IMG/VR virus record: IMGVR_UViG_3300043313_001602
DNA length: 15,741 bases
Strand: one strand, 5' to 3'
DNA from: a virus
In this document: positions 1 through 15,741 of the stretch, piece by piece
Position numbering within the stretch: the stretch's first letter is position 1
How the letters are laid out: each line of letters starts with the position of its first letter
Translations under genes and position numbers: made by a program
Notes under the pieces: model-generated
What the model was told of the DNA's origin: nothing
What the model saw: only the letters and a program-made list of their open reading frames with translations
Database searches by the model: none

Positions 1-69
1 ACCGGGTCCCGCCTCGCCCGCCGGGCACGGCGCCCCGCTCCCACGTCGAGGGCGTGGTGATCGGCGCCC
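1..69 (+). repeat. Terminal direct repeat, copy 1 (identical to 15673-15741); contains the 3' end of the HNH gene (1-60) and the start of the 54..254 ORF
   Basis: Base-by-base comparison: accgggtcccgcctcgcccgccgggcacggcgccccgctcccacgtcgagggcgtggtgatcggcgccc occurs at both window ends. Confidence 0.97.
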
Positions 70-254
70 TCGCCCTGGCCGTGCTGTTGGTCGGGGTGGT
101 GGGGTGTGCGGTGTGGTCGGGGTGGTGGGCGCGGCGGCAGGTGGCCGAGCTCGAGGCCGAGTGGGAGCGGGCCCGGGATCCTGTAGTCGACGCCGATCGA
201 GGGGTGAGCAACCCCCCTCATAGTTCCGAACGATCGTTCGATGAGCGGGGATAG
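54..254 (+). CDS. Small single-pass membrane protein (function unknown; holin or exclusion-like)
   Basis: The GTG start overlaps the HNH stop (GTGGTGA). A hydrophobic helix (VIGALALAVLLVGVVGCAVWSGWW) is followed by a charged Arg/Glu tail. GC3 bias is good for about 45 codons and decays toward the 3' end. Confidence 0.55.
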   Translation: MVIGALALAVLLVGVVGCAVWSGWWARRQVAELEAEWERARDPVVDADRGVSNPPHSSERSFDERG

Positions 255-263
255 TTATACCAA

Positions 264-293
264 GTTGTCGGCTCGCAGTCGGCGCCGACTTTT
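264..293 (+). terminator. Terminator-like hairpin followed by a T run
   Basis: gtcggc (267-272) or agtcggc (277-283) can pair with gccgac(t) (284-290), followed by tttt (290-293). A second imperfect hairpin, ggcggtgga/tcgaccgcc (295-316), precedes ttttt (326-330). The site lies just after the 54..254 stop. Confidence 0.35.
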
Positions 294-394
294 GGCGGTG
301 GACTGTTCGACCGCCGCCTCCGTCGTTTTTCTCTCTCCACGGTCAGGCGCACACCCTAAATCGCTGTTACAAATTGCATGTAGGAATACACGCA

Positions 395-727
395 ATGGGT
401 TCTGATCAGGGCCGATTGCCCGGGATCGGCGCCAGACGCCGGCGAACCGGCCGGGTTCGCCGAGGACTCGACGAGACCCTCCGGGCGATGCGCGACCTCG
501 GCCACCTCGAACCCGTGGACGCCGCCCTCGTCGCCCTGGCCCGCGTGGCCGCCGACGAGCTCGACGACGCGTGCCACGACGACGACGAATCCCGCTACAC
601 CCGCGCCACCCTCATCGCCCGCTACGCCGGCGTCCTCGACACACTGGTCGGTCATGACCCCGGCTACGACGGCGGACCCTCGCTCGACGAGCTGCTCGCC
701 GCGATGGGCGACGAGGCGCCGGCCTGA
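395..727 (+). CDS. Terminase small subunit (putative)
   Basis: About 110 aa, immediately upstream of and overlapping the large terminase. It has a basic N-terminus (RRRRTGRVRR) and then an acidic helical region. AGGA lies 9 nt upstream of ATG 395. The track start is TTG 374. Confidence 0.6.
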   Translation: MGSDQGRLPGIGARRRRTGRVRRGLDETLRAMRDLGHLEPVDAALVALARVAADELDDACHDDDESRYTRATLIARYAGVLDTLVGHDPGYDGGPSLDELLAAMGDEAPA

Positions 728-2081: not shown

Positions 2082-2351
2082 CGATGGTTGTACATGGATA
2101 CCGTGTAACAACGGTTAGTGTCACAGGGCCGTGAGGCGCTGTTACGCGGCCGGGTGGGGTGATCGGGCGTGACCCCCCACCCGGCCGCGTGAGGCGGGCA
2201 CGTGGGCGGGTGGACGGGACTTCCGGGTTACGTCACCCTCGGGAGGGTGCCGCTATTCACCCGAGGCCGGACCTTCCCACCGCCGCCTCTGCCGCCACCA
2301 CCGGTACCGCCGGCACCGCCGCCGGGCGGCCACACCCTCGGGCCCGAGGGT
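2082..2351 (+). promoter_or_regulatory. Atypical noncoding spacer between terL and portal (low-GC GTAAC-repeat island plus two GC hairpins)
   Basis: Stops and poor GC3 in all frames over 2082-2200. GTAAC-containing words at 2077-2087, 2104-2114 and (inverted) 2137-2145. A TAGTGT -10-like hexamer at 2116-2121. A hairpin caccct-cggg-agggtg at 2234-2249. Confidence 0.5.
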
Positions 2352-2357
2352 GTGGCC
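2328..2357. repeat. Perfect 30-bp palindrome (15-bp arms, no spacer)
   Basis: ggccacaccctcggg|cccgagggtgtggcc was checked base by base. It spans the proposed portal start codon GTG 2352. Confidence 0.95.
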
Positions 2358-3476
2358 CCGGTCTCCGCCGTCTCCGCCACGATCACCGAGGCCATCGCGG
2401 CCAGGACCTGGGGACCCGAGCTCGACCCCTGGCAACTCCCCGTCGTGGTCGCCTGTAGGGGTCTGATCGCCGACACGATCGCCCAGCTCCCGCTCATCAC
2501 CCTGCGGGGACGCCGGCCGCTCCCAACCCAACCCATGCTCACCGTGCGCCCCAACCGGCTCGAACCGCGATGGCTCACGTTCCACCGGCTCGCCAACAAC
2601 CTCACCCGCTACGGCTACACGTGGCTGATCGTGACCGACACCGACGCCGCCGGGATCCCCGCCGCCGTCCGGGTCGTCGACCCCGCCGACGCGACCGCCT
2701 CCTGGGACCCGCTCACCGGCGACCTCGACACCGTCACCTACAACGGCCACGACCTAGTCCCCGGCCTCGAGGCCATCTGGATCCCGTTCCACGTCGAACG
2801 CAAAGCAAGCCTCGGGACCTCGCCGCTGGTCGACGCCGCGGGCGCCGTCGCCTACCTCACGCAGCTCTGGACCATGGCCGGGTCGTTCTGGGAAGCCGGC
2901 TACCCGAGCCTGGTCGTGAAGGTGAAACAACGGCTCAACCCCGGCCAGGCCCAACGCATCAAAGCCGATCTGATCACCTCGCTCGGCGGCCGCCACGAAC
3001 CCGGCGTGATCGACGCCGACGGCGACATCGGCCCCCTCGGCGTGTCCCCGCTGGAGGCCCAGCTCGTCGAGTCGATCGGCGCCGCCAACGCCGAGATAGC
3101 CCGGGCATTCCTCATGCCCCCCTCGCTCGTGAACGTCGCCTCCGGGGACTCGCTCACCTACTCCACCGTCGAGGGCGAGTTCCGCCGGTGGTTGGCCACC
3201 GGCCTCGGCGCCTACCTGAACCGCCTGGAATCGGCGTTCAACGACCTCACGCCCCGCGGGCAGACCTGCCGGTTCGACACGACCGAGCTCGTGCGGGCCG
3301 ACTTCGCGGCGCGCATCGAGGCGTACACGGGGATCCTCGCCGGTCAGGCGTGGATGACCGTGGACGAGGTCCGCGACCTGGAGGGACTCGACCCGCTGGA
3401 GGATCCCCCGCCGCCGTCCCCCGCGACCGTGCCCGCCGCCGCCACCACCCTCACCGACGCCCCACCGGGCGCCTGA
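2352..3476 (+). CDS. Portal protein (HK97 family)
   Basis: Portal-like core: ...LNPGQAQRIKADLITSLGGRHEPGVIDADGDIGPLGVSPLEAQLVESIGAANAEIARAFLMPPSLV... The gene follows terL. I set the start at in-frame GTG 2352, where GC3 bias begins. The track ORF starts at GTG 2202 (another in-frame GTG lies at 2247), but that extension is a poly-Pro stretch with weak codon bias. Confidence 0.9.
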   Translation: MAPVSAVSATITEAIAARTWGPELDPWQLPVVVACRGLIADTIAQLPLITLRGRRPLPTQPMLTVRPNRLEPRWLTFHRLANNLTRYGYTWLIVTDTDAAGIPAAVRVVDPADATASWDPLTGDLDTVTYNGHDLVPGLEAIWIPFHVERKASLGTSPLVDAAGAVAYLTQLWTMAGSFWEAGYPSLVVKVKQRLNPGQAQRIKADLITSLGGRHEPGVIDADGDIGPLGVSPLEAQLVESIGAANAEIARAFLMPPSLVNVASGDSLTYSTVEGEFRRWLATGLGAYLNRLESAFNDLTPRGQTCRFDTTELVRADFAARIEAYTGILAGQAWMTVDEVRDLEGLDPLEDPPPPSPATVPAAATTLTDAPPGA

Positions 3477-3493
3477 CCCACCGGAGGCCACCC

Positions 3494-5218
3494 ATGGCCC
3501 GATCCCCCGTCCTGGCCCGCACGCTGATCGAGGCCGCCCCTACCGCCACCCTGGCCCGCCGCTCGGCTCAGCCCGTGCACCTCGACGACGCCGGCACCCT
3601 CACCGGGCGCCTCGTCCCGTGGGACACCCCGGCCGAGGTCGACGACGGCACCGGCCGCTACACCGAATCGTTCGCCCGCGGTGGGATCACCGCCCGGGCC
3701 GGCGCCGTGATCCCCGTCTACGCCGGTCACTCCGTCGACTCCCGGGGACGGCTCACCCGCGGCCCCCTCGTCGGCCGCCTCGACGGCGCCGAGTCCCGCG
3801 AGGACGGGCTGTACGGGACCGTGGTCCTGGCCGACGTCCCCGCCGCCGCCGAGCTGCGGGCCCTGGCCCGCACCGTCGGCGCCACGTTCTCCGTCGAGTT
3901 CGAGGCCGAGCCCGCCGTCGGATCCGTGGTACGCACCGGGATCGAGCTCGACGGGGTCGCCGTGCTCACCCTGCCCCACCGGGGCGCCTACGCCGGCGCC
4001 GAGGTCCTCGCCGTGCGGGCCGCCCCCGACGGCGACGAGGAGCCCGACGAGGACGAGGGCGACGACGGCGGCGACGACGGCGGCGACACCCCCACGACAC
4101 CGGTGCCGGGCGCGCCGACCGCGGCCCGGGCCGTGATCGCCCGCGAGGTGCAACGGGCGTTGGGCCGCGTCGCCCGCCCGCTCGCCCACCCCCTGCAACG
4201 GTTCTCCGGGCCGTTCGAGTTCTACGAGGCCGCCCGGGCGTCGAGCTCGGACGAGCTGCCGCTGTTGTTCCGAGACGCCTACCAGGCGCACCGGGCGCGG
4301 GTCACCCTCGGCCGCGTGTTCGTCGACCAGATCACCACCGACAACCCCGGCGTCGTCCCCCCCGCGTGGCTGACGGAGATCTTCGGGATCCTCGACACGG
4401 GCCGCCCGGTGATCAACGCGATCGGCACCCGGCCGCTGCCGCCGTCGGGGATGGAGGTCGACTGGCCGTACTTCGACGGCGACCTCCACGCCCTGGTCGG
4501 CGAGCAGACCCTGGAGAAGGGTGACGTCACCTCCGTGAAGGTGTCGTTCAAGAAGGCCTCGACGCCGATCAAGACCTACGCCGGCGGATCCGACATCTCC
4601 TGGCAGCTCATCCGCCGGTCACAGCCCGCCTACCGCGACGCCTATCTCCGGGTCCTGAACGCCGCTTACGGGGTCGTCACCGACAACGTGGTGGGCGACC
4701 TGCTCCCGGTCGTGCCCGGGCACCAGACCGTCGACTATGACGTCGCCGCGGCGGACCCCGACGGCGCCGCCCTCAAGGCCGCGGTGTTCGAGGCCTCGTC
4801 CCTGGTGCAGGTCGCGACCGGTTCGCCGGCCTCGTGGGTCCTCGCTTCCACCGACGTGTTCCTCGCGTTCGGTGGCATGCCATCGATGGTCGCCTCGCCC
4901 TACGGGACGCAGAACGTGCCGGGCACCGCCACCGCCTCGACGCTCGACGTCAACATCTCCGGCCTCAAAGTCACCCTCGCGGCGGACCTCGCCGCCGGTA
5001 CCGCCATCGTCGGCAACACCGCGGCGGCGGCGTGGATGGAGGACGGGCCGTTCGTCGTGGCGGCGCCGGTGATCCCCAAGCTCGGCGAGGACGTCGCCGT
5101 GTGGGGCATGGGCGCGTTCGCCGCGTTCATCCCCGCCGGGATCGTCGTGCTCACCAACGTCGTCGCCGCCGACCAGGCCACCGCCGGGTCCCGAGGCAAG
5201 AGGACCTCGGACCGGTGA
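3494..5218 (+). CDS. Prohead protease - major capsid protein fusion (HK97-type)
   Basis: GGAGG lies 7 nt upstream of ATG 3494. The N-terminal ~175 aa carry protease-like motifs (GRLVPWD, VYAGHSVD, FSVEF). An acidic linker DGDEEPDEDEGDDGGDDGGD sits at about nt 4027-4089. A ~380-aa HK97-fold-like capsid region follows in the same uninterrupted frame. Confidence 0.85.
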   Translation: MARSPVLARTLIEAAPTATLARRSAQPVHLDDAGTLTGRLVPWDTPAEVDDGTGRYTESFARGGITARAGAVIPVYAGHSVDSRGRLTRGPLVGRLDGAESREDGLYGTVVLADVPAAAELRALARTVGATFSVEFEAEPAVGSVVRTGIELDGVAVLTLPHRGAYAGAEVLAVRAAPDGDEEPDEDEGDDGGDDGGDTPTTPVPGAPTAARAVIAREVQRALGRVARPLAHPLQRFSGPFEFYEAARASSSDELPLLFRDAYQAHRARVTLGRVFVDQITTDNPGVVPPAWLTEIFGILDTGRPVINAIGTRPLPPSGMEVDWPYFDGDLHALVGEQTLEKGDVTSVKVSFKKASTPIKTYAGGSDISWQLIRRSQPAYRDAYLRVLNAAYGVVTDNVVGDLLPVVPGHQTVDYDVAAADPDGAALKAAVFEASSLVQVATGSPASWVLASTDVFLAFGGMPSMVASPYGTQNVPGTATASTLDVNISGLKVTLAADLAAGTAIVGNTAAAAWMEDGPFVVAAPVIPKLGEDVAVWGMGAFAAFIPAGIVVLTNVVAADQATAGSRGKRTSDR

Positions 5219-5565
5219 CCGACGCCGAGCTCGCCGCGGCCGTGGCCGCCACGGTCGCGACCGTGCTCGGATTCCCCGCGGCCTCGGCGCCGCCGACGCG
5301 GGTCACCGACGCGTCGGCGGCCGCCGTCGCCGTGGCCCGCCAGTACCTCTACGGGCCCGAGGCCGACCCGATCACCCTCATCCCCGACGGCCCCGACGTG
5401 ATCGCCGGCCTCGCCAGCCTGGCCGTGCGCATCTACCACGACCCCGCCTCGCCGGGCGGGGTCGTCGGCGGCGACGCCTACACCGGCGCCGCTCTCCCCG
5501 AGGACCTCATGGCCCACGTCCACCACTACCTCGACCCCTACCGCAGTTCGTTCGGGTTCGCATGA
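5215..5565 (+). CDS. Head-tail adaptor/connector protein (gp6-like)
   Basis: GTGA overlap with the capsid stop. 116 aa, Ala-rich N-terminus. The position is immediately after the capsid gene. Confidence 0.6.
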   Translation: MTDAELAAAVAATVATVLGFPAASAPPTRVTDASAAAVAVARQYLYGPEADPITLIPDGPDVIAGLASLAVRIYHDPASPGGVVGGDAYTGAALPEDLMAHVHHYLDPYRSSFGFA

Positions 5566-5951
5566 CCACCACCGCCGAGCTCCTCGAGGTGATCCGGGCC
5601 GGGTTCGAGGGCGGCGCCCTGGTGGTCACCGCCGGCCACGAGGCCCCCGCCGAGGTCACCGGCGCCCCCGCCGTGATCCTTCGCCCGGCCAACCCGTGGC
5701 TCGTCCCGAACCACCGCGTCGGCACCTGCCCCCAGGTGACCTGGTCGGTGCAACTCGTGGGCGGCCGGTTCGACCTGCCCACCACCCTCGACACGCTCGC
5801 CGCCGGCTACCTCGCCGCCCGCCGCGCCCTGCTCGACGCCAGGGTCGGGAAGGTCGGCCCGCTCGGCGAGGTCACCCCCACCGAGATAGCCGGTGTGCCG
5901 ATGCTCGCCGCGACGTTCCCGCTCACCCTCGATTACGACCCGGGAGACTGA
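5562..5951 (+). CDS. Head-tail joining / neck or tail-terminator-like protein
   Basis: ATGA overlap with the preceding gene. 129 aa, strong GC3. It lies between the adaptor and the major tail gene. The call rests on synteny only. Confidence 0.5.
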   Translation: MTTTAELLEVIRAGFEGGALVVTAGHEAPAEVTGAPAVILRPANPWLVPNHRVGTCPQVTWSVQLVGGRFDLPTTLDTLAAGYLAARRALLDARVGKVGPLGEVTPTEIAGVPMLAATFPLTLDYDPGD

Positions 5952-5956
5952 CCCCC

Positions 5957-6466
5957 ATGGGCAACTACTTCGACGACGTCACCCTGACCCTCACCGTGCC
6001 CACGGGGACCGGCACCGCCACCGACGTCTCCTGCGACGTCACCGCCGCCACCCTCACCCCCGACACCCCCGAGGAGATCCGCAAACGCCTGTGCGGACAG
6101 AAGACCGTGACCGGCACCACCACGTGGACGCTCGACCTGGAGTACGACCAGAACTGGGCCGAGGCCTCCGTCGGGCCGCCGGTCGTCGGCATGGGCCTGT
6201 CGCTGTTCCTGTCGACCAACGCCGGCCAACTCGCCGACTTCAAGATCGAATGGCCGCTCGAGGGAACCCAGGCCACCGGCATCGTGCGGCTCAAACCGGG
6301 ACCCTACGGTGGGACCGCCGGTGAGATCGCCGAGGCCTCCGTGACCCTCGGCCTCGACGGCGAACCGACGTTCGGGCCGATCGTCGCCGCCGGCACCACC
6401 GGCACCGGCCCCGACGCCGACGCCGACGAGGACGACCGCACGGTCGGCTACGAAAAGGCCGCCTGA
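5957..6466 (+). CDS. Major tail protein (putative)
   Basis: GGGAG lies 10 nt upstream of ATG 5957. 169 aa, Thr/Gly-rich, beta-type sequence. It sits directly upstream of the chaperone genes and the tape measure. Confidence 0.6.
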   Translation: MGNYFDDVTLTLTVPTGTGTATDVSCDVTAATLTPDTPEEIRKRLCGQKTVTGTTTWTLDLEYDQNWAEASVGPPVVGMGLSLFLSTNAGQLADFKIEWPLEGTQATGIVRLKPGPYGGTAGEIAEASVTLGLDGEPTFGPIVAAGTTGTGPDADADEDDRTVGYEKAA

Positions 6467-6783
6467 TGGCGAGGGCGATGTCGCTGTCGTTCACGTTCGA
6501 GCTCACCGTGGACGACACCAAGGTCCGGGTCACGAACCGCCCGGGTGACGTCCTGAAGCTGCGCGCCGCCATGCCCGCCGGGCGGTCCCTCGACGACGAG
6601 CTCGCCGCCGGCGGGACCACCGCCTATGAGGTCCTGTTCCGGTTCGCCCACCAGGCCCTGCGCCACCACGACGGCTACGCCGATCTGACCGTCGAGGAGT
6701 TCATGGACCGGGTGGAGGACTGGTCGATCATCGAGGACGACCCCGTGCGCCCTACCGGCGCGGCACCGTCGAACGAACCGTGA
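6466..6783 (+). CDS. Tail assembly chaperone (G-like)
   Basis: TGATG overlap with the major tail gene. 105 aa, acidic C-terminus. Canonical position two genes upstream of the tape measure. Confidence 0.6.
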   Translation: MARAMSLSFTFELTVDDTKVRVTNRPGDVLKLRAAMPAGRSLDDELAAGGTTAYEVLFRFAHQALRHHDGYADLTVEEFMDRVEDWSIIEDDPVRPTGAAPSNEP

Positions 6784-7426: not shown

Positions 7427-9011
7427 TCGCGACATCGCCGTCAAGTTCACCGGCGACAGCTCCGACCTCGAGCGCGCCAGCAACCAGGCCGAGCGGTCGG
7501 TCGCGGATACCGGCAAGTCCATGGGCGGCGCCCTGGCCGGTCTCGCCGGGCCCGCGGCGATCGGCGCCGCCGCCATCGCGGGGGTCGCCATCGTCGGCTA
7601 CGACCTCGCCCAGGCCGCCATGGAGGACGAGGCCGCCGCGAGCCAGCTCGCCCAACAGCTCCGCCAGGCCGCCGGCGCCTCGGACGAGGCCGTCGCCGGC
7701 GCCGAGGCCTACATCTCGACCCTGTCCAAGGCGGCCGCCGTGGCCGACGACGAGCTCCGCCCCGCCCTGGCCACCCTGGCCACCGCCACCGGCGACACCA
7801 CCAAGGCCCAGGACCTGCTCGCCCTGGCCACCGACATCAGCGCCGGCACCGGCAAGGACCTCGGCACCGTCACCCAGGCCCTGGCCAAAGCCCAGCTCGG
7901 CTCCATCGGTGGCCTGTCCAAGCTGGGGATCGCCACCGAGGACGCCGACGGTAAGGCCCTGTCGCTCGAGGAGACCCTGGCCAAAGCCCGCGACACGTTC
8001 AAGGGCGCCGGCGAGGCCGCCGCCAACACCAGCGCCGGCGGCATGAAGAAAGCTCAGATCGGGTTCGACGAATTCAAGGAGTCCATCGGCGCCAAGCTCC
8101 TGCCGGTCCTGGGCACCCTGTCGACGTTCTTCACCGAGAAGGTGCTCCCGGGGATCGAGTCGCTGGTCGCGTGGGTCGAGGAGAACTGGCCCCGGATCAT
8201 GGCCGAGATTCAACCGTCGCTCACCGAGCTGCAGACCCTGGTGTCCGAGGTCCTCACCAACATCAGCTCGTTCTGGACCGAGTGGGGCGACGAGATCATG
8301 GCCCTGGTCGGGCGGATCGCCGAGCTCTGGGTCACCGAGATCGTCACCAAGATCAAGATCGCGATCGCGATCATCACGTGGATCGCCGACACCATCAAGG
8401 CGTTCTGGGCCGAGTGGGGCGACGAGATCATGGCCGGCGTCAAGTCCGTCGCCGACTTCATCAACGGGGTCGTCACCTGGATCGGCGAGTTCTGGCTCGA
8501 GTGGGGCGACGAGATCACCGAGGGTGCCCGTACCGCGTTCGACATCATCATGTCGATCATCCGGTTCGCGATGGACACCATCGGATCCATCATCAAGTTC
8601 ATCACCGCGGTGATCACCGGCGACTGGGGCGGCGCCTGGGACGCCGTCAAGTCCATCGTGCGCGGCGGGGTCGACTTCGTCCTCGACCTGATGGGCCGGA
8701 TCGGGGGGCTCATCCGCGACGCCCTGTCCGGCGTCGCCGACCTCATCACCAAGCCCTTCAAGATCGCGTTCAACGCGATCGCCGATCTCTGGAACAACAC
8801 GATCGGCGCCCTCAATTTCACGTTCCCCGACTGGATCCCGGGCCTCGGCGGCAACCGGATCGACGTGCCCGACATCCCCCGGTTCGCAACCATGGGCGCG
8901 CTCACGATCGTCATGCCCCCGGGATCGGACGGCTACGACGTCGCCCGCCAGGTCACCTCGTTCTCCCGCAACGTCGCCCCCATGGGCACCCTGACGGTGG
9001 CGGTCCGATGA
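7419..9011 (+). CDS. Tape measure protein
   Basis: Longest real ORF (530 aa). Ala/Leu-rich helical N-terminal half. Three FWxEWGDEI repeats. An Ile-rich hydrophobic central segment. The gene sits before the Dit-like gene. Confidence 0.9.
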   Translation: MADRDIAVKFTGDSSDLERASNQAERSVADTGKSMGGALAGLAGPAAIGAAAIAGVAIVGYDLAQAAMEDEAAASQLAQQLRQAAGASDEAVAGAEAYISTLSKAAAVADDELRPALATLATATGDTTKAQDLLALATDISAGTGKDLGTVTQALAKAQLGSIGGLSKLGIATEDADGKALSLEETLAKARDTFKGAGEAAANTSAGGMKKAQIGFDEFKESIGAKLLPVLGTLSTFFTEKVLPGIESLVAWVEENWPRIMAEIQPSLTELQTLVSEVLTNISSFWTEWGDEIMALVGRIAELWVTEIVTKIKIAIAIITWIADTIKAFWAEWGDEIMAGVKSVADFINGVVTWIGEFWLEWGDEITEGARTAFDIIMSIIRFAMDTIGSIIKFITAVITGDWGGAWDAVKSIVRGGVDFVLDLMGRIGGLIRDALSGVADLITKPFKIAFNAIADLWNNTIGALNFTFPDWIPGLGGNRIDVPDIPRFATMGALTIVMPPGSDGYDVARQVTSFSRNVAPMGTLTVAVR

Positions 9012-10273
9012 TCGCGTGGCCGCCGATCCCGCCACCCACCGGCGGCACCGCCCTCGCCGCCGACCTCGTGCACGTCACCCTCGCCCTACCGACCGCGCAG
9101 GACGTCTGGGACCGGGCCCGCTGGGACCAGGACCGGTGGGACGCCGTCGACTACGACAACTTCATCGACGCCTCCTGCGACTGCTCCGGGGTGTCCATCG
9201 AGCGGGGCCGCAACGGGCCCCTCGACCACGCCGCCCCCGCCCGCGCCTCGTTCCAACTCGACAACCCGACCGGCGTCTACTCCCCGTGGAACACCCTCGA
9301 CGCCAACGGCGCCGACCTCGGCCGCCCCGTCCTCGGCCCCGACATCCCCGTCCAGGTCGCCACCCACGCCGGCCCGCTCTACACCGGGTTCGTGCGCACG
9401 ATCACCGAGACCGACGACGGCGGCGAATCCACCGTCCAGCTCGCCTGCACCGACGCCCTGTCATTCCTCGGCGACGCCAACGGCCTCGAGCAGGCGAGCC
9501 AGGGCGGCGGCGAGCTCGCCGGCGCCCGCCTCGCCCGGATCATGAACCAGGCCGCCGTGCCCGCCGTCGTCGACAGCGACCTCGACACCGGCGTCGCCAC
9601 CCTGCAGGCAACGACCCTGGCCAAGGGCGCCCTCGAGGAAGCCTGGCTCACCGCCGACTCGGACGGCGGGGTGTTCTGGTGCACCGCCGGCGGTGTCATC
9701 CGCTACGTCGACCCCACCGGCCTGCAGGCCCCCGAGTTCACCGAACCGATCGCCACATTCACCGACGATCCCGACGCCGACGGTCTGTGCCCGATCCAAT
9801 TCACGATCGCCACCGACCGCGACCAGGTCAAGAACGTCGTGTCCGTGGCCCGGGTCGGCGGCACCGCCCAGACCGTCACCGACGCCCTGTCCGTGACCCG
9901 CCACGGGGTCCGGTCCACCCAACGAACCGACCTCATCCACCAGTCCGACGCCTGGTCCGCGACCGTCGCCGGGTTCATGCTCGCCCGCCTGGCCAACGCC
10001 GAGACCACCGTCTCACCGATCGACGGGGTCGCCACCGACGACGAGGACTGGTTCGACCTCGCCCACGCCGTCGACCTCGGCTCCCGGGTCGAGCTCATCC
10101 GCTACCGGTTCGGCCAGGTGCTGGAGGTGTTGGCCACCGTCGACGGCATCGGCCACAACATCAGCCTCGACCAGTGGACCGTCACCCTCAAGTGCGCCCC
10201 CGGCGAGCAGGTCCAGGGCTACTCCCGGTGGGACTCGGCCGTCTGGGATCAATCCGTCTGGGACCACCGATAG
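9008..10273 (+). CDS. Distal tail (Dit-like) / minor tail protein
   Basis: ATGA overlap with the tape measure stop. 421 aa. Siphovirus tail-component-like N-terminal region (SIERGRNGPLDHAAPARASFQLDNPTGVYSPWN). W-D triplet motifs occur at both termini. Confidence 0.7.
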   Translation: MIAWPPIPPPTGGTALAADLVHVTLALPTAQDVWDRARWDQDRWDAVDYDNFIDASCDCSGVSIERGRNGPLDHAAPARASFQLDNPTGVYSPWNTLDANGADLGRPVLGPDIPVQVATHAGPLYTGFVRTITETDDGGESTVQLACTDALSFLGDANGLEQASQGGGELAGARLARIMNQAAVPAVVDSDLDTGVATLQATTLAKGALEEAWLTADSDGGVFWCTAGGVIRYVDPTGLQAPEFTEPIATFTDDPDADGLCPIQFTIATDRDQVKNVVSVARVGGTAQTVTDALSVTRHGVRSTQRTDLIHQSDAWSATVAGFMLARLANAETTVSPIDGVATDDEDWFDLAHAVDLGSRVELIRYRFGQVLEVLATVDGIGHNISLDQWTVTLKCAPGEQVQGYSRWDSAVWDQSVWDHR

Positions 10274-10282
10274 GAGACCGTC

Positions 10283-10780
10283 GTGCCGATCGTCGTGCCG
10301 ACCCCGAACACCGTCATCACCTCGGCCTGGGGCAAGTCCGTGGCCGACGCCCTCAACGCGATCATCCCCCACGAGCTCGCCTACACCCAGTCCACCGCCA
10401 CCAAGCTGGTCACCGTCGGCGTCGAGGCCTCGGCCGACGCCGTCGTGATCGGACCCGCCGTCACCTACGACGGCGCCACCCCCGTCATCGTCGAGTGCTT
10501 CGCCCCGGCCGTCGTGCCCGCCGCCGTCGCCGGCGCCAACGTCATGCTCTGGCTCTACCAGGACGGGGTGTCGATCGGTCGCCTGGCCACCGTCCAGACC
10601 CCGGCCGCCGGTGTCTTCATCGCGCCCGTACACCTCACCCGGCGAATCACCCCGACGGCGGGGTCCCACCAGTACACGTTCGCCGCCACCGTGAACGGCG
10701 GCAACGGCAACGTGTTCGCCGGCACCGGCGGCCTCGGCCAGTACCAGCCCTCGTTCATCCGGGTCACCCGGGCCGCGTGA
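10283..10780 (+). CDS. Minor tail protein (possible receptor-binding component)
   Basis: AGGAG lies 6 nt upstream of GTG 10283. The N-terminal motif PTPNTVITSAWGKSVADALN is of the kind seen in actinophage minor tail proteins. 165 aa. Confidence 0.6.
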   Translation: MPIVVPTPNTVITSAWGKSVADALNAIIPHELAYTQSTATKLVTVGVEASADAVVIGPAVTYDGATPVIVECFAPAVVPAAVAGANVMLWLYQDGVSIGRLATVQTPAAGVFIAPVHLTRRITPTAGSHQYTFAATVNGGNGNVFAGTGGLGQYQPSFIRVTRAA

Positions 10781-10781
10781 T

Positions 10782-10934
10782 GTGGACGCCGCCGCCGCGG
10801 TCGCCGTCGTCCTCGTCGCCCTGGCCGTCGTCCTCGCCGGCGCCGCCTGGCGCCACGCCCGCGGCGGGATCCGGGTGGACCTGCGGGTCTGGTGGGGCGA
10901 GCGGGGCGAGGCCGGTGACGGCGAGGACCGGTGA
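10782..10934 (+). CDS. Holin-like small membrane protein
   Basis: Not in the track (50 aa): VDAAAAVAVVLVALAVVLAGAAWRHARGGIRVDLRVWWGERGEAGDGEDR. It has one hydrophobic helix and a charged tail, and almost every codon ends in G/C. It sits directly upstream of the endolysin. Confidence 0.55.
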   Translation: MDAAAAVAVVLVALAVVLAGAAWRHARGGIRVDLRVWWGERGEAGDGEDR

Positions 10935-10949
10935 CGGTACGGTGACGGG

Positions 10950-11717
10950 GTGTCCCGCCTGACGGTGGCGCCGCTCGCCGAGTACGACCTCTCCGGGGGA
11001 CGGGTGATCATCACCTCGCCCTACGGCGACGGCCGCAATCACAAGGGCGTCGACTGGGGCACCACCGACGGCATCGAAATCGGCACCCCCCTGTTCGCGC
11101 CCGTCGACGGGCACATCTCCAACGCCGGCGACGACGGCCCCTACACCCCCGAGGGCGGCCACACCGCCGGGCGGTGGCTGTGGTTCGCCGGCGACAACGG
11201 CACCCGCTGGAAGATGTTTCACCTGAATCGGGTGACGGGCCCGGCCGGGGTCTGGTTGGCCGCCGGTACCCCCATCGCCGAGGTCGGCAACACCGGCACC
11301 CAGGCACCCCACCTCCACCTCGAAGAGCACCGCGAGGGCTCCTGGTCCTCGCCCGTCGACTTCACCGCCGACGCCTACGAGGTGATCGAGGCCGGGCGGT
11401 GGCCCGGCACCCGCCCCCCACCGGAGGAACCCGACATGACCGACGACGACCACAACAGGATCATGGCCAACGTCGGCGCCCTGCTCGACAACCGCATCGC
11501 CCAGTTCCTCACCGCGAGCCTGCTCTGGACCGACGGCGACCTCGCATTCGAGGTCGTCACCGACGGCGACGGCCACCGGGTCCGCCGCCGCCTCGCCCCC
11601 GGCGAGCTCGTCGCCCTCCGCACCGGCGCCGCCATCGCCGAACAGCCCGCCATCGACGTCACCCGCCTCGCCCAAGCCCAGGCCGACGCCGTGCGCGCCT
11701 GGCCGCTAGTCGACTGA
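10950..11717 (+). CDS. Endolysin, M23-family metallopeptidase with C-terminal extra domain
   Basis: HxxxD-like NHKGVDW and the HxH motif in GNTGTQAPHLHLE. 255 aa. The C-terminal ~95 aa follow a Pro-rich linker, and an in-frame ATG at 11436 is preceded by GGAGGA. Confidence 0.85.
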   Translation: MSRLTVAPLAEYDLSGGRVIITSPYGDGRNHKGVDWGTTDGIEIGTPLFAPVDGHISNAGDDGPYTPEGGHTAGRWLWFAGDNGTRWKMFHLNRVTGPAGVWLAAGTPIAEVGNTGTQAPHLHLEEHREGSWSSPVDFTADAYEVIEAGRWPGTRPPPEEPDMTDDDHNRIMANVGALLDNRIAQFLTASLLWTDGDLAFEVVTDGDGHRVRRRLAPGELVALRTGAAIAEQPAIDVTRLAQAQADAVRAWPLVD

Positions 11718-11999
11718 ATCGGGGAAGTCGACCGCCTCGGTCGGCCGCAACACCACCCGCTCGGCCCGCCCGTCCCCCGTCTCCGCCGCGTCCGACAGGA
11801 CGTTGTGCAGACCCAGGAAGAAGTCGTGCAGGTCATCCATGGCGCCGGCGAACAGTAGTTGCGACGGCCCGTAGGTGCCGCCTCGGACATCGACGTGGAA
11901 CCGGCGCCGGTCGGGGTCGTCGTCGATGGGCGGCACCTCATAGGCGTGAAGCGTGGTGACACCGCGGACTTGGACGGACGGCCGATCGACATAGGTCAT
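11706..11999 (-). CDS. Hypothetical protein (only minus-strand gene)
   Basis: 97 aa with strong GC3 bias on the minus strand. The ATG lies 6 nt downstream of a TAGGCT hexamer (leaderless-type arrangement). It is divergent from parA, and its 3' end overlaps the endolysin stop by 12 nt. Confidence 0.7.
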   Translation of the reverse strand: MTYVDRPSVQVRGVTTLHAYEVPPIDDDPDRRRFHVDVRGGTYGPSQLLFAGAMDDLHDFFLGLHNVLSDAAETGDGRAERVVLRPTEAVDFPDSVD

Positions 12000-12042
12000 A
12001 CCATCAGCCTATCAGCCCTCAGCCATCAGCTAGGCTGTTCGG
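12000..12042. promoter_or_regulatory. 43-bp divergent leaderless promoter region packed with (A)TCAGCC repeats (candidate partition site/operator)
   Basis: atcagcc at 12003-12009 and 12011-12017, tcagcc at 12019-12024, atcagc at 12025-12030, and inverted ggctg at 12033-12037. TAGGCT at 12031-12036 (+) lies 6 nt before ATG 12043. TAGGCT on the minus strand (12011-12006) lies 6 nt before the minus-strand ATG at 11999. Confidence 0.6.
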
Positions 12043-12753
12043 ATGACTACTGTTATCAGTGTTGCCCATGTCAAGGGCGGTGTCGGGAAGTCGACGACCG
12101 CCGTGCAGCTCGCCCTGCACGCCGGTGCCACCGGCCGCCGGACCATGCTTATCGACGCCGACCCGTCGCGCTCGACCCTGTCGTGGGCGACCCGGGCCGG
12201 GGACTGGCCGACCGAGGTGGTGCCCGTGGAGGGGTACTGGCGGGCCGACCTCGAACGAGCCGTGCCAGCCCTGGCCTATGACTGCGACCTCGCCGTCATC
12301 GACACGCCGCACGACCCGGCCGGCCGGCACCACGCCGGGGTGGTGATGATCTCCGCCATTGTCGCGGCCGACCTGGTGGTGGTGCCGACCTCGCCCGACG
12401 GTGCCGACCTCGACCGCATGGAGGACCTGCTGGCCGCGCTCGACGTCGGCCAGCTCGACCGCCAGCAACGTGGTCTCGGCCCCGTCGACTGGCTCGTGGC
12501 CCTCACCCGGGTCGACCTGCGTAGAAGGACAATCGCGGCCGAGGTCGTCGAGCTCATGGTGAACCGCGACCTGCCGGTCCTGCCGATCGCGGTGCCCTCC
12601 GCCCTGGCCGACGGGCACGCCACCTCGACGTGGGTTCCCGAGCGGGCCGCCGTCGAGGACGCATTCGGGACGTCCACCGTGCTCGACGAGTACGCCGGCC
12701 TAGCCACCGCCGTCCTCGCCCGGGCCCTCGGGACCACGGTGGCCCCGGCATGA
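12043..12753 (+). CDS. parA: ParA/Soj-family partition ATPase (small, type Ib-like)
   Basis: Deviant Walker A KGGVGKST at the N-terminus, then LIDADP and a Walker B-like AVIDTP. 236 aa with no N-terminal HTH domain. The downstream small RHH gene overlaps by ATGA. Confidence 0.85.
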   Translation: MTTVISVAHVKGGVGKSTTAVQLALHAGATGRRTMLIDADPSRSTLSWATRAGDWPTEVVPVEGYWRADLERAVPALAYDCDLAVIDTPHDPAGRHHAGVVMISAIVAADLVVVPTSPDGADLDRMEDLLAALDVGQLDRQQRGLGPVDWLVALTRVDLRRRTIAAEVVELMVNRDLPVLPIAVPSALADGHATSTWVPERAAVEDAFGTSTVLDEYAGLATAVLARALGTTVAPA

Positions 12754-13013
12754 GCCGCGACACGCAACGCCCGACGATCCCGGCCTCGACCCGCCCTGCC
12801 CCCGACCCCGTCCCGCGGCGACCCAAGCGCTTCACCATGGACCTGCCCCCGGACAATCACACGATGCTCCGGCTCTGGGCCCTCGACCGCCAGGTGCCGG
12901 CCTCGCTGCTCGTCATGACCCTGGTCGATCTGGCCATCAACGACCCGGCGATACGGGCCCGGGTCGAGCACATCGCCGCCGACCAGTGGGAGGCACGATC
13001 AGCCCGTCAGTAG
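12750..13013 (+). CDS. Ribbon-helix-helix (ParG/CopG-like) DNA-binding protein, probable centromere-binding partner
   Basis: Internal ATG 12750 of track ORF 12630..13013 (ATGA overlap with parA). 87 aa with a disordered basic N-terminus, then KRFTMDLPPDNHTMLRLWALDRQVPASLLVMTLVDL (beta strand plus two helices). Confidence 0.65.
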   Translation: MSRDTQRPTIPASTRPAPDPVPRRPKRFTMDLPPDNHTMLRLWALDRQVPASLLVMTLVDLAINDPAIRARVEHIAADQWEARSARQ

Positions 13014-13050
13014 TCAGTAGTCAGCCGTGATGATGGGCTGCATTCAGCCC
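12999..13050. repeat. Second TCAG(CC/TAG) repeat cluster with hairpin at the 3' end of the par operon
   Basis: atcagcc at 12999-13005; tcagtag, tcagtag and tcagccg at 7-bp spacing (13007, 13014, 13021). Hairpin gggctg-catt-cagccc at 13035-13050. Confidence 0.6.
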
Positions 13051-13422
13051 GCAAACCCCCTCGGGCGGGTGACGGTGGTGTCAGAAACGGGCTCCTAGTG
13101 GATGCTCTGCGCCCGGTCCACATACACCCGTCCGAGGGGGGAGTGAGCGCGTGAGAGCAAGGTTAGCGGGCCCTGGCCGCGCCTGCTTGGGGCCGGTTCG
13201 GGGTCGCGTCATAACCGGGATTATCGGCGGATCACCCACCCCGACCGTGCTGAGGGAACCCTGAAGGGCCCCGAGCCAGCAAGGTGATGTAACAACGACC
13301 TACCGTGTCAGGATGCACACGCGCAACGGCCCGGTGTCGAGAGGGAATGGTCATCCCTCGACCCCGGGCCGGTGCCAGAACAGTCCCTACAACCGACGCC
13401 AATCGAAAGCAGGTGACCTGAG

Positions 13423-13872
13423 GTGAACCCTAGCCTCGGCCGCGCCCATCTCCGCAACGTCGCGACCCCCGACCCGGCACCGCCGCCGCTCGACCTCACG
13501 GCTAAGCAACTCACCCTCGTCGAGGCGAACCACCCGACCGTGCAGGCCCGCCAGCGCGCCGTGGCCGACGCCGTCCTCGCCGGCCACTACCGAGGCCGCG
13601 ACGGCCGGGCCCACGCGTTCCAGGCGCGTCACCGCGAGGTCATGTCCTGGCTCTGCATGCTCGCCAACCGCGACGGCGAGGTCCGCCCCGAGGTCATGAC
13701 CGCGGGCCGCCTGGCCGACCGCCTCGGCCGGACGCACACCAACGTCTGCGCCGACCTGCGCGACCTCGAGACTGCCGGACTGCTGTGGCGCCGCGCGCTG
13801 CCAGCAACGCGGGGACCGCTGTACGTGTACTGGGTCCCCGGGATGATGGCTCCCGTCCGGGCCGCCGAGTGA
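13423..13872 (+). CDS. Winged-helix DNA-binding protein (candidate replication initiator or repressor)
   Basis: 149 aa with good GC3. wHTH-like segment TAGRLADRLGRTHTNVCADLRDLETAGLLWRR. The gene ends 15 nt before the three perfect 24-bp repeats, and a degenerate copy overlaps its stop codon. Confidence 0.7.
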   Translation: MNPSLGRAHLRNVATPDPAPPPLDLTAKQLTLVEANHPTVQARQRAVADAVLAGHYRGRDGRAHAFQARHREVMSWLCMLANRDGEVRPEVMTAGRLADRLGRTHTNVCADLRDLETAGLLWRRALPATRGPLYVYWVPGMMAPVRAAE

Positions 13873-13886
13873 TCCCCAGGGCCGTG

Positions 13887-13960
13887 CCCAGGGTGATGCT
13901 GGGGCATCACCCCAGGGTGATGCTGGGGCATCACCCCAGGGTGATGCTGGGGCATCACCC
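13887..13960. repeat. Three perfect tandem 24-bp repeats made of alternating inverted 9-mers (iteron or operator array)
   Basis: The unit cccagggtgatgctggggcatcac occurs at 13887, 13911 and 13935. GGGTGATGC and GCATCACCC alternate with 4-nt (tggg) and 2-nt (ca) spacers. A degenerate copy lies at 13869-13886. Confidence 0.95.
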
Positions 13961-14045
13961 CTATAGGGAGACCAAAGAAGAGACCACTACTGAGACAGGC
14001 CCCTGTAGTCGCGCGGTCCGCGCGACAGGCCCTGTGGATCAGACG

Positions 14046-14082
14046 TTGACGCCGTGCCCGATCGGGCAAATAGGCTTCAGGT
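14046..14082 (+). promoter_or_regulatory. Putative leaderless promoter for the 14083 operon
   Basis: TTGACG (14046-14051), a 19-nt spacer, TAGGCT (14071-14076), 6 nt, then GTG 14083. This is the same TAGGCT-N6-start geometry as the two par-region promoters. Confidence 0.55.
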
Positions 14083-14433
14083 GTGATCAGCCAACCGCCT
14101 CTCCTGCCGCCACCGGCCAAGCCGCTGGCCGCCGCTCGGGCGGCGGTGAGAAGGGCGCGAGAAAAGGCGCTGACAGCGGTGCCGACGCCGAGCTCGCTGA
14201 CACCACCGGGATCCGCTCCCCTGTCACACCCCCGCCCTACGGTGGGGGAGGTGCCCCGAGGTCGACCGGCCGCCCCCGTCCCACCGCATGGCACGCGCGC
14301 CCGGTACAACCACCGCACCGACCCGTGCCGATGCACCCGCTGCCGCGTAGCGAACACCCGGTACATCGCCGCCTACCGAACCCGGACCGCCCTCGACGAG
14401 CACCACGACCAGGCCGAGGTTCTCGCCCGATGA
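14083..14433 (+). CDS. Small protein with HGTxxxYxxxxxCRCxxC Cys motif (putative zinc-binding/DNA-binding regulator)
   Basis: The 116-aa C-terminus PPHGTRARYNHRTDPCRCTRCRVANTRYIAAYR matches a motif recurrent in actinophage and actinomycete-element DNA-binding proteins. ATGA overlap with the next gene. Confidence 0.6.
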   Translation: MISQPPLLPPPAKPLAAARAAVRRAREKALTAVPTPSSLTPPGSAPLSHPRPTVGEVPRGRPAAPVPPHGTRARYNHRTDPCRCTRCRVANTRYIAAYRTRTALDEHHDQAEVLAR

Positions 14434-14792
14434 CGAGCTCGCTCGACACCCGCCCGCAACGGCTCGACCTGAAGCTGTACGGCGGCGACGACACCGTGAT
14501 CCGGCTCACCGTCCTCGACTCGGCCGGCGCCCCGCTGGATCTCTCCGCGGGCGAGCTGCTCGCCCAGGTCCGTCCCAAGCCCGGCGACGACGAGCTCACG
14601 TGCACCCCTGTCCTCGACACCACCGAGGCCGCCCTCGGGGTCGTGTACCTGCTGTTCGCCGCCGCCTGCACCCGGGCACTGGCCGCCGGGAAAATCCACG
14701 CGTGGGACCTGCGCTACCGCGTCGCCGGGCTCGACGAACGGCTCTGTAGCGGCACGATCCACGCCCAACCCGAGGTCACGGTCGACCCATGA
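14430..14792 (+). CDS. Ig-like (BppU N-terminal-like) minor tail protein
   Basis: Internal ATG 14430 of track ORF 13785..14792. 120 aa with the pattern LKLYGGDDTVIRLTVLDSAGAPLDLSAGELLAQVRP...WDLRY...GTIHAQPEVT, typical of phage fibre/baseplate Ig-like domains. It is translationally coupled to the fibre gene. Confidence 0.55.
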   Translation: MTSSLDTRPQRLDLKLYGGDDTVIRLTVLDSAGAPLDLSAGELLAQVRPKPGDDELTCTPVLDTTEAALGVVYLLFAAACTRALAAGKIHAWDLRYRVAGLDERLCSGTIHAQPEVTVDP

Positions 14793-15487
14793 TCGAGGCC
14801 GAGATCGTCGTCCCCGCCGAGACCGTCGCCGTGATCGGCGCCCGCGCCGGGGCCCCCGGCCCCGCGGGGCCCCCGGGCGAACCCGGGCCCGCCGGCCCGC
14901 CCGGGCCCGAGGGTGACCCCGGTCCCGCCGGCCCGCCCGGCCCCACCGCCGTGAGCTCTGTCGACGGGCGCACCGGCGCCGTCACCCTCACCGACCGGTA
15001 CGTCGACACCGGCGGCGACACGATGACGGGCACGCTGAACGCGCCGTCGATCGCCCTCGGCGCGACACCGGCGACAACGGGAACAGTCCGCCTGACTAAC
15101 AACCAGGGCATCGTTTCTCGGAACGCCGCCGGCGACGCCGACCTGCACATCGCGTCGGTGTCGGCCACCAACGTGATGCAATTCGGCGTCGGCCCTGCGG
15201 CCTGCCAATTCAGCTCCAATACGTCGATCAAATTCTTGATCAGCGGGATTCGTCAGCTCGAATTCCTACCCTCCGGAGTAAGTCTCGCCGAGGGACTGGT
15301 CTTCATCTGTGGGACGACCACCGGCAACCGGATCGGCACGGCGGCCACGCAAAAGCTCGCCTTCTTCGGCGCCACCCCCGTGGTGCGCCCCACCGCCACC
15401 CCGGCGGCGGCCACCGACCCGGCCACGACCATGGCCCTGGTCAACGACCTGCGGGCGAAACTGATCGCCCTCGGTCTGATCGGGTGA
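14789..15487 (+). CDS. Tail fibre with collagen-like Gly-X-Y repeats
   Basis: GAPGPAGPPGEPGPAGPPGPEGDPGPAGPPGP, then the fibre motifs SVDGRTGAVTL and GGDTMTGTL. The actinophage minor-tail C-terminal motif KLAFFGATPV...LGLIG is also present. Confidence 0.85.
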   Translation: MIEAEIVVPAETVAVIGARAGAPGPAGPPGEPGPAGPPGPEGDPGPAGPPGPTAVSSVDGRTGAVTLTDRYVDTGGDTMTGTLNAPSIALGATPATTGTVRLTNNQGIVSRNAAGDADLHIASVSATNVMQFGVGPAACQFSSNTSIKFLISGIRQLEFLPSGVSLAEGLVFICGTTTGNRIGTAATQKLAFFGATPVVRPTATPAAATDPATTMALVNDLRAKLIALGLIG

Positions 15488-15732
15488 GACCGTACGACGA
15501 GCCCGAACACCGGGCCCTGTCGGCTCGGCTCAAGTCCGTCGAGGTGCAGTGCTGGCGGTGTCCCGCCCGGGCGAGCACCGTGGACCATGTGCCCCCGCTC
15601 GCCCGCCATCAGCACCGCCACGGCACCCGATGCTGCGAGCTGCGCCCCGCCTGCCCGGCGTGCAACTACTCGACCGGGTCCCGCCTCGCCCGCCGGGCAC
15701 GGCGCCCCGCTCCCACGTCGAGGGCGTGGTGA
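15484..15732 (+). CDS. HNH endonuclease (terminase-associated type)
   Basis: 82 aa. CWRC...DHVPPLARHQHRH...CPACN forms an HNH/zinc-finger pattern. It lies next to the terS/terL genes across the circular junction. Confidence 0.85.
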   Translation: MRPYDEPEHRALSARLKSVEVQCWRCPARASTVDHVPPLARHQHRHGTRCCELRPACPACNYSTGSRLARRARRPAPTSRAW

Positions 15733-15741
15733 TCGGCGCCC
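15673..15741 (+). repeat. Terminal direct repeat, copy 2 (identical to 1-69)
   Basis: Exact 69-nt identity with the window start. The offset of 15,672 bp gives the unit genome length. Confidence 0.97.

Follow-up and report, generated by a model that had tools for sequence, protein, structure and literature searches.

A tailed-phage genome without a recognisable integrase

How a tailed phage of 15.7 kb might be kept as a prophage without an integrase is the question raised by the virus record IMGVR_UViG_3300043313_001602, a 15,741-nt stretch of DNA that was analysed over its full length and is called the window below. Comparison with related genomes indicated that the window is very probably a complete temperate small siphovirus whose prophage would be kept without a recombinase of its own. 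Of the mechanisms considered, a plasmid prophage with ParA partition and Xer dimer resolution was the best supported, and we give it about an even chance of being correct.

A repeat search of the window found bases 1–69 to be identical (100%) to bases 15673–15741, and this 69-nt terminal direct repeat implies either a circular genome of 15,672 bp or a unit with terminal redundancy. Two independent metagenome contigs (L002 and L003) crossed the end junction uninterrupted, reading from the fibre gene through the HNH endonuclease gene to terS. Approximately 25 genes, only one of them leftward, were called from third-position G+C (GC3 frame plot) and from the genes called on metagenome contigs that carry exact copies of the window parA gene, of which there were seven in addition to the window (ENA, JGI, Logan), L002 and L003 among them. 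The original prediction of a circle with a full virion and lysis set was borne out by the overlap, the junction contigs and the family matches: the window is a circular or circularly assembled genome that encodes TerL, portal, HK97-fold capsid, tape measure, fibre and M23 endolysin, and thus the full set of an HK97-type siphovirus with cos/HNH packaging. The G+C content was 72%, and the host is probably a high-GC actinobacterium.

Protein family searches of the window (Pfam, PHROGs and NCBIfam) returned no integrase, serine recombinase, transposase, protelomerase, polymerase, primase, helicase or replicase and no match to a Rep family, and the integrases of six relatives had no match in the window by tblastn, in agreement with the earlier claim that such genes are lacking. 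Scans of the window with Rfam (E up to 1) and for tRNA and tmRNA genes gave nothing credible, so that no tRNA-type attP was present. Positions 11600–14500 yielded nothing in a scan for sigma-70 promoters and terminators, and the GC skew of the window exhibited no origin or terminus switch.

A partition cassette in the place of the integrase

The gene at 12043–12753 (+) encodes a ParA partition ATPase of the small type that lacks an N-terminal DNA-binding domain, with the deviant Walker A motif KGGVGKST and a match to phrog_164 (8e-30). Its match to NF041546 (2.4e-28) lay under the curated cut-off of that model, and its matches in the PDB were ParF and small ParA proteins. The closest phage ParA proteins were those of cluster A mycobacteriophages such as RedRock (33% identity), and matches were also found in 3,293 plasmid records at approximately 33–38% identity.

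The parA stop codon is overlapped by a gene for an 87-aa partner (12750–13013, +), which is likely a ribbon-helix-helix (RHH) protein and a candidate centromere-binding protein. An alignment from 14 genomes displayed a disordered N-terminus with an invariant Arg-Pro, followed by a strand-helix-helix pattern, and a single-sequence model placed the helices at residues 36–46 and 51–64. The strand-helix-helix pattern recurs in the 89-aa 'ParB' of RedRock, the parA gene of which is immediately preceded by 8-bp repeats. Profiles of ParD, CopG and ParG aligned with the partner in register at sub-threshold scores. Single-sequence and profile searches of the PDB were likewise sub-threshold, the predicted model had no structural neighbours, a homologue search returned only the protein itself, there was no Pfam family match, and BLAST found no similarity to RedRock gp38. 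The RHH partner named in the original prediction therefore stood as a strand-helix-helix pattern but not as a family assignment, given that the RHH matches were sub-threshold.

The earlier claim that iterated repeats flank parA was upheld. Four TCAG-core repeats of 7–8 bp each, spaced by 8, 7 and 7 nt, occupied 12004–12030 (+) directly upstream of parA (parS-L-like), and four more with the same spacing occupied 12999–13024 (+), where they overlap the partner stop codon (parS-R-like). The pattern TCAG-N3-TCAG-N3-TCAG occurred exactly twice in the window, at 12012–12029 and 13007–13024 on either side of the par operon, compared to 0.00 occurrences expected. All relatives had their own short direct or inverted repeats upstream of parA, as would be expected of a centromere/operator that co-evolves with its binding protein, and we infer that the TCAG arrays are candidates for centromere and operator.

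Relatives of this element were found almost entirely in metagenomes. Megablast of the whole window against phage genomes gave no match, and the fused protease-capsid protein was without close relatives in 50,697 phage records and 72,556 plasmids: tblastn with the capsid gave four weak matches only in phages and none in PLSDB plasmids. Metagenome protein sets held 318 relatives of the capsid fusion and IMG/VR held 228 loci, nearly all of them on contigs of 14.5–16.3 kb. Two NCBI metagenome or metagenome-assembled genome (MAG) contigs (15.2 and 15.6 kb) were also family members. A scan of 185,579 species-representative genomes, which used only two peptide patterns, gave one match, a 14.4-kb contig binned with an Actinoallomurus MAG (12.8 of the 14.4 kb were examined). 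Sequence comparison places the element in a large family of 15–16-kb phages known only from metagenomes.

Within this family, the partition genes and the integrase occurred in different genomes. All near-complete genomes with a capsid identity of at least 60% (16/16) carried ParA, at 50–66% identity to the window ParA for its clade, together with a small partner, and lacked an integrase. Eleven more distant genomes (capsid identity ~40–47%) lacked ParA and had a tyrosine integrase gene on the minus strand, immediately behind the lysis genes; six of these integrases were scanned with the Phage_integrase profile (E = 1e-21 to 4e-27) and the others were identified by tblastn. The par cassette was colinear with the integration cassette of relatives, as in parABS of the RedRock type. 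ParA and its partner thus sit where relatives have the integrase, which indicates that the par cassette replaces it.

Three near-complete genomes of a distant clade (L041, L042 and L048) had no integrase, ParA or dif-like site (described below) at the thresholds used, and the family may hold further variants of the lysogeny slot or lytic members. The capsid cluster P0003 (86%-identical capsid) listed a longest contig of 23,469 bp, the sole family contig well above genome length.

The sole leftward gene of the window (11706–11999, −), which is divergent from parA and was not noticed in the original prediction, encodes a 97-aa protein. It was supported by the GC3 frame plot, was called on all contigs, and was present in the nearest relatives only, with no Pfam, PHROG or NCBIfam match. 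It shares the repeat-bearing intergenic region with parA and might be expressed during lysogeny.

A conserved dif-like site accompanies the partition genes

The 409-bp gap between the partner gene and the next gene, which encodes a predicted winged-helix protein, had as its most invariant block a 28-bp dif-like site that the first reading of the sequence had missed. This putative XerC/XerD site, TCCGCCGATAA-TCCCGG-TTATGACGCGA, lies at 13204–13231 on the minus strand and resembles actinobacterial dif. It has the layout of a Xer site, with an 11-bp XerC arm, a 6-bp centre, an 11-bp XerD arm and an inner ATAA-N6-TTAT dyad. The core pattern GCCGATAA-N6-TTATG had one match in the window compared to 0.01 expected. 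The published dif of Frankia alni is CACGCCGATAATGCACATTATGTCAAGT, i.e. CACGCCGATAA-TGCACA-TTATGTCAAGT, and dif sites predicted in other actinobacteria have in common GCCGATAA-nnnACA-TTATGTCAAGT. Compared to the Frankia dif, the window site was identical at 18/28 positions (XerC arm 9/11, XerD arm 7/11).

The site was present once per genome in 16/16 ParA-type genomes, always on the minus strand between the partner and winged-helix genes. Several of these genomes had arms within one or two mismatches of the consensus, and the sites of L006, L007, L008 and L009 had one mismatch in 19 specified positions. No such site was found in the integrase-type genomes (10 of the 11 identified were scanned) or in 210 shuffled genomes. 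The arms were conserved and the six nucleotides of the centre varied between phages, never ending in the ACA typical of hosts; recombination between two identical copies, as in dimer resolution, would place no constraint on the centre, leaving it free to vary.

Host XerC and XerD are the predicted users of this site, which could either resolve plasmid dimers or serve as an attachment site; both functions might also apply. The claim that the element has neither integrase nor attP accordingly held for the integrase, but not cleanly for attP, given that the conserved dif-like site could itself be an attachment site. A junction with host DNA was not observed in any contig that crosses the site, each of which had phage DNA on both sides, and a metagenome scan for the XerC arm next to phage flanks gave five contigs, again with phage DNA on both sides. 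This lack of junctions is weak evidence because the sample was small and because integrase-type relatives were also seen only as contigs of free genome length.

A dif-like site without recognisable integrase or ParA was found in L033 and L074 and, more weakly, in L073. The site of L033 and L074 lay directly after the tail/lysis block, that is, in the integrase slot, and L033 is a possible 'dif-only' lifestyle variant as judged from its gene content. In L033, a complete 15,250-bp circle, the site was at 14292 (−) and a cytosine-methyltransferase-like gene, assigned on motifs only, ran from 14949 across the contig ends to 391. This end-spanning open reading frame (ORF) had been suspected to encode ParA, a candidate that was rejected on account of the methyltransferase-like motifs. 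Homologues of the gene (44–48% identity by tblastn, Dcm-like) were present in L042 and L051.

In one half of the ParA clade (L006, L011, L018, L020, L021, L022, L031 and L094), the 5' part of the conserved non-coding region was swapped for a rightward ORF of 87–125 aa and a leftward ORF of 57–154 aa, the latter ending at the XerC arm of the dif-like site. These small ORFs beside the site had no Pfam or PHROG function and no XafT-like match.

Structured non-coding DNA around the dif-like site

The whole of the gap (13014–13422) was more conserved as DNA than the flanking genes, with indels that were not multiples of three, a feature that had also been overlooked before. Two stable hairpins bracket the dif-like site. 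The longer, at 13056–13140 (+), had a folding energy of −54.6 kcal/mol (z = −3.7) and some compensatory changes among six relatives; the other, at 13321–13375 (z = −4.0), is part of a conserved leader upstream of the winged-helix gene (13235–13422, +). Only the 3' third of the gap was kept across the whole ParA clade, and it resembles the leader of the winged-helix gene, including a strong ribosome-binding site (GAAAGCAGGTGA, 13405–13416). There was no Rfam match in the gap, which may encode a structured RNA or act in cis as DNA. Most cluster A parABS phages have their RNA-based prophage origin in a 400–500-bp non-coding region beside par, and by analogy the hairpin-rich region next to par in the window is a second origin candidate, beside the repeats that follow the winged-helix gene.

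A winged-helix gene and its repeats

The 149-aa product of the gene at 13423–13872 (+) is a predicted winged-helix DNA-binding protein with weak matches to Pfam helix-turn-helix (HTH) families of the MarR, Crp and CodY types. Its predicted model gave only generic MarR, ArsR and CodY matches, which do not discriminate an initiator from a repressor. The original prediction had described repeats, an AT-rich patch and a GC hairpin after this gene, and that layout was present. Starting 14 nt past the stop codon, 3.1 perfect copies of a 24-bp unit (13887–13961, +) contained six 8-bp half-sites (GGTGATGC / GCATCACC) that alternate in orientation every 12 bp. They were followed by a less GC-rich patch (13968–13999, +) with 12-nt repeats (GAGACCAAAGAA, GAGACCACTACT and GAGACAGG), a candidate unwinding element or promoter, and by a GC hairpin (14008–14026, +) with the 7-bp stem GTCGCGC / GCGCGAC, in which the fold of 13996–14040 was unremarkable (z = −1.9). 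Repeats of the form GAGACCACTAC(T) also occurred in L009, L011, L020, L022 and L027.

Nearly all ParA-type genomes checked had a repeat array after the winged-helix gene, and none was detected in L006, L018 and L032. A winged-helix gene with 22–24-bp repeats and a short-repeat patch was also present in the integrase-type genomes L034, L044, L057, L072 and L076, with sequences that varied by genome. The module is thus family-wide rather than plasmid-specific, and it could be either an origin with its initiator or a three-operator repressor switch ahead of the long rightward operon. The plasmid-style maintenance core that had been proposed for 11.7–14.1 kb consequently held for the par genes, which are specific to the clade and sit at the integrase slot, but not as one unit with the winged-helix module. 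L009, the winged-helix protein of which was 86% identical to that of the window, had identical repeats, and L007 and L008 (55–57%) had different ones. At the corresponding place, L033 encoded a 278-aa protein (ORF 1164–2000) resembling the phage replication initiator O (phrog_391, 1.4e-07). A profile comparison of the winged-helix family with this O-like protein was weak, at 15% probability, and the candidate relationship was rejected.

How the prophage might be maintained

If the element is a plasmid prophage, infecting DNA would circularise and persist as a low-copy plasmid. The RHH-like partner would bind both TCAG arrays as centromere and operator, and its N-terminal Arg-Pro tail would stimulate ParA so that copies are separated along the nucleoid, as happens with RedRock parABS and TP228 ParF/ParG. 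Host XerC/XerD would act at the dif-like site to turn dimers into monomers, as at cer, psi or chromosomal dif, which would spare the small genome a resolvase gene. Replication would be carried out by host enzymes and might start at the winged-helix half-sites and less GC-rich patch, or at the structured non-coding region beside par. Upon induction, the long rightward operon (the 116-aa gene, fibre, HNH, and terminase through endolysin) would be expressed. The strongest argument for dimer resolution is that par genes and arrays were present in every clade member, which implies that the element is inherited outside the chromosome. In low-copy plasmids, partition is normally accompanied by multimer resolution, and an ordinary 16-kb Mycolicibacterium plasmid carried ParA together with a recombinase.

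Several points weigh against a plasmid prophage. Every statement made here on lifestyle derives from comparison between genomes. No recognisable immunity repressor was identified in the window, and the RHH fold of the partner had no significant support in profile and structure searches. Two or three relatives (L033, L074 and perhaps L073) had the dif-like site but no recognisable ParA, and the pairing of par with dif has no tested phage precedent, given that no dif-like site was present in RedRock within 6 kb of par. A search of PLSDB did not recover the element as a plasmid, and its single appearance among the 185,579 species-representative genomes was as a MAG contig. Contig size was considered as a test of lifestyle and rejected, since integrase-type relatives were likewise found only on 15–16-kb contigs.

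The dif-like site could instead be the attachment site through which host XerC/XerD integrate the circle at chromosomal dif, as in integrative mobile elements exploiting Xer (IMEX), with par stabilising the excised or replicating circle or being a secondary addition. We regard this as possible, though on the unlikely side. Like IMEX, the element combines the lack of its own integrase with a dif-like site, and across the family this site and the integrase were mutually exclusive. The site is located shortly ahead of the winged-helix regulator, a position taken in integrase-type relatives by the intergenic region between integrase and regulator (likely attP), and L033 and L074 have the site without recognisable ParA or integrase. 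Tailless double jelly-roll phages of Vibrio are split in the same manner into int-type and dif-type members, the latter being IMEX that integrate at dif, a parallel that also counts against a plasmid prophage. The arms are close to actinobacterial dif (one mismatch in 19 in the four genomes named above), and the central half beside the XerD arm never matched the host ACA. A mismatch in the XerD-side half of the centre is seen in known IMEX sites at which exchange is by XerC alone. However, selection has kept par genes and arrays in 16/16 clade genomes, for which it is difficult to account unless the element is inherited outside the chromosome, and the centres varied widely between closely related phages. 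There was no host-phage junction in any contig examined and no hybrid dif site marking insertion at a host dif in the contigs that cross the site or in the MAG contig, a small sample; the two peptide patterns recovered one MAG contig of approximately genome length from species representatives and nothing chromosomally integrated. No tailed IMEX was found in the literature searched.

A strictly lytic or only pseudolysogenic phage, in which par would position replicating DNA or prolong a carrier state and the dif-like site would resolve replication intermediates, would agree with the lack of a recognisable repressor, with the absence of lysogen evidence for an element known from genome-length contigs only, and with the occurrence of ParA-like genes in many phage families (phrog_164). 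We consider it improbable, because sister lineages are plainly temperate (they have integrases), because the cultured phage Barebow has the same layout with integrase and HTH genes, because the cassette replaces exactly the integrase, and because the layout and best matches fit a system of the RedRock type that was shown to maintain prophages. The original prediction had seen the winged-helix gene and its 24-bp repeats as a plasmid replicon (Rep and iterons) that defines the plasmid lifestyle. The order of a DNA-binding gene, three 24-bp repeats and a less GC-rich patch with short repeats speaks for this, as do the repeats that change together with the protein (L009 cf. L007 and L008) and the O-like initiator at the corresponding place in L033. 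On the other hand, the same module in five integrase-type genomes means that it cannot be what makes the clade a plasmid, palindromic sites 23–24 bp apart are just as compatible with a repressor switch with three operators, the MarR/ArsR-type winged-helix fold is generic, and the profile comparison with the O-like protein was weak. A replicon that defines the lifestyle is a tentative assignment, which we hold to be rather less than evenly probable.

Known systems compared

Among known phages, close counterparts of the plasmid prophage proposed here were the cluster A parABS phages (RedRock, Alma, LadyBird and others). Like the window, which is very probably temperate as well, these are temperate tailed actinophages without an integrase that carry a small ParA and a ~90-aa 'ParB' in the integration slot, with short direct repeats on both sides and a non-coding region of several hundred bp beside par, and their parABS is colinear with the integration cassette of relatives. 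The RedRock prophage was experimentally shown to be extrachromosomal, with a copy number of 2.4 per cell, and the repeats bound by RedRock ParB form two arrays, of eight 8-bp units each, on either side of the cassette. In contrast to the window, the cluster A phages are ~52 kb in size (~3.4 times larger), encode their own DNA polymerase and many other proteins, and have unrelated virion genes; there was no dif-like site near par in RedRock. Their non-coding origin lies upstream of parA with a leftward transcript, whereas the conserved non-coding region of the window lies downstream of the partner gene, and the window family is known from sequence comparison alone.

The IMEX, which include the inoviruses CTX-phi, VGJ-phi and TLC-phi and the dif-type double jelly-roll vibriophages, share with the window a very small genome, a dif-like site, the lack of an own integrase, and close relatives that differ only by an integrase module; borrowing host XerCD saves coding space. 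Unlike the window, they are tailless or filamentous, have proteobacterial hosts and no partition cassette, and their integration at dif has been demonstrated. The cer site of ColE1 and psi of pSC101 also contain a core site for host XerCD, there used for multimer resolution. Compared to cer, which has a degenerate site and ~180 bp of accessory sequence, both arms of the window site are like chromosomal dif. TP228 ParF/ParG (type Ib) has a small ParA-type ATPase, as the window does, and an RHH protein that binds short repeats ahead of its operon, a role proposed here for the 87-aa partner. The window differs from TP228 and the plasmid Xer systems in being a phage rather than a plain plasmid, with a partner of which the RHH assignment is sub-threshold.

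In gene order, the window resembled Curtobacterium phage Barebow (18.3 kb), which has terminase, portal, capsid-protease fusion, tail, endolysin, a lysogeny slot, small regulators and HNH at the right end. Barebow differs in that its lysogeny slot is occupied by a tyrosine integrase gene and HTH genes and in that ParA is lacking, and its 'major capsid and protease fusion protein' was a weak match (~33% over a quarter of the protein) with no DNA-level similarity. P1, N15 and SSU5 also combine virion genes with plasmid maintenance, but are 46–100 kb in size and encode their own replication and recombination proteins; in P1, partition by parABS is paired with dimer resolution by Cre/lox. The view that so compact a size is unusual was correct in relation to P1, N15 and SSU5 but holds only with a qualification, as phage-plasmids of ~15 kb are known among the tailless tectiviruses, and a published community of phage-plasmids includes genomes as small as 16 kb. 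The tectiviruses GIL16 and Bam35 are ~15-kb linear plasmid prophages that, unlike the window, are tailless and protein-primed. Compared to these phage-plasmids, the window is tailed and circular and appears to borrow replication and recombination from its host.

We judge the chances to be slightly better than even that the family comprises the first tailed phages that rely on host XerC/XerD, that its ParA clade (~14.4–16 kb) contains the smallest tailed phage-plasmids, and that its lysogeny slot switches between an own integrase, a dif-like site alone and a dif-like site with ParA. The novelty would lie in a tailed phage of such size, in the exploitation of a host Xer site by tailed phages and in a second family with an integrase-partition swap, and not in the ~15-kb size alone. 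The swap has been reported almost only in cluster A mycobacteriophages, the authors of that work being aware of no further group of related genomes in which it occurs, and use of host Xer by viruses is known only in tailless phages; the window family would extend both. If confirmed, a full virion and a heritable prophage state would fit into ~15.7 kb, with replication and site-specific recombination outsourced to the host. The int-type, dif-only and dif-plus-par genomes on one backbone would make the trade-off between integration and plasmid maintenance directly testable. Compact vectors for high-GC actinobacteria might be built from the par, dif-like and origin-like segments, and the dif-like site could be a clue to host phylum for uncultured phages.

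Virion, lysis and other genes

The rightward virion genes start with terS (395–727, +; PF23931, 7e-07; phrog_15169) and TerL (654–2081, +; phrog_9, 1.6e-45), the small and large terminase subunits, followed by the portal gene (2202–3476, +; PF04860, 1.5e-41) and a fusion of prohead protease and major capsid protein (3494–5218, +; phrog_2263, 2.3e-39), which in relatives matched PF25209 and PF04586. The genes at 5215–7426 (+) are predicted to encode a head-tail connector, a major tail protein (5957–6466, a weak assignment), tail assembly chaperone-like proteins and a 170-aa protein, based on synteny with relatives and Barebow and on weak matches to phrog_4574 and phrog_5. The tape measure gene (7419–9011, +; phrog_991, phrog_58 and phrog_3981) contained three imperfect repeats of ~66 nt at 8258–8542, each encoding 'FWxEWGDEI'. 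Two minor tail proteins of 421 and 165 aa (9008–10780, +) were supported by phrog_5313 (9e-22) and by family-wide conservation.

Lysis would involve a 50-aa hydrophobic protein (10782–10934, +) with no family match, a candidate holin from its sequence and its position ahead of the endolysin, and the endolysin itself, an M23 peptidase (10950–11717, +; PF01551, 1.4e-11; endolysin PHROGs). Downstream of the winged-helix module, a 116-aa gene (14083–14433, +) that was overlooked by the first reading and by metagenome gene callers alike encodes the zinc-ribbon-like motif HGTRARYN-x5-CRCxxCxxANxxY, with a weak match to phrog_8936. Its homologues (44–85% identity) were present in every ParA-type genome and also in many integrase-type genomes. 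The region 14430–15487 (+) includes a gene for a 120-aa protein (phrog_1084) and, at 14789–15487 (+), that for a collagen-like tail fibre (PF01391).

An HNH endonuclease gene adjoins the terminase genes (15484–15732, +), as in the usual layout of cos-packaging phages; it had weak matches to phrog_338, phrog_2323 and phrog_589 and a CxxC...H...CxxCN pattern, and was kept in relatives. A 98-aa ORF with a hydrophobic segment starts at 15630 and spans the junction, its 3' part lying at 54–254 (+). It was called on L002 and L003 and from the GC3 frame plot, and had no family match. Within it, and between the HNH and terS genes, a G-rich 26-nt tandem repeat of 2.3 copies (80–137) falls where a cos site would be expected.

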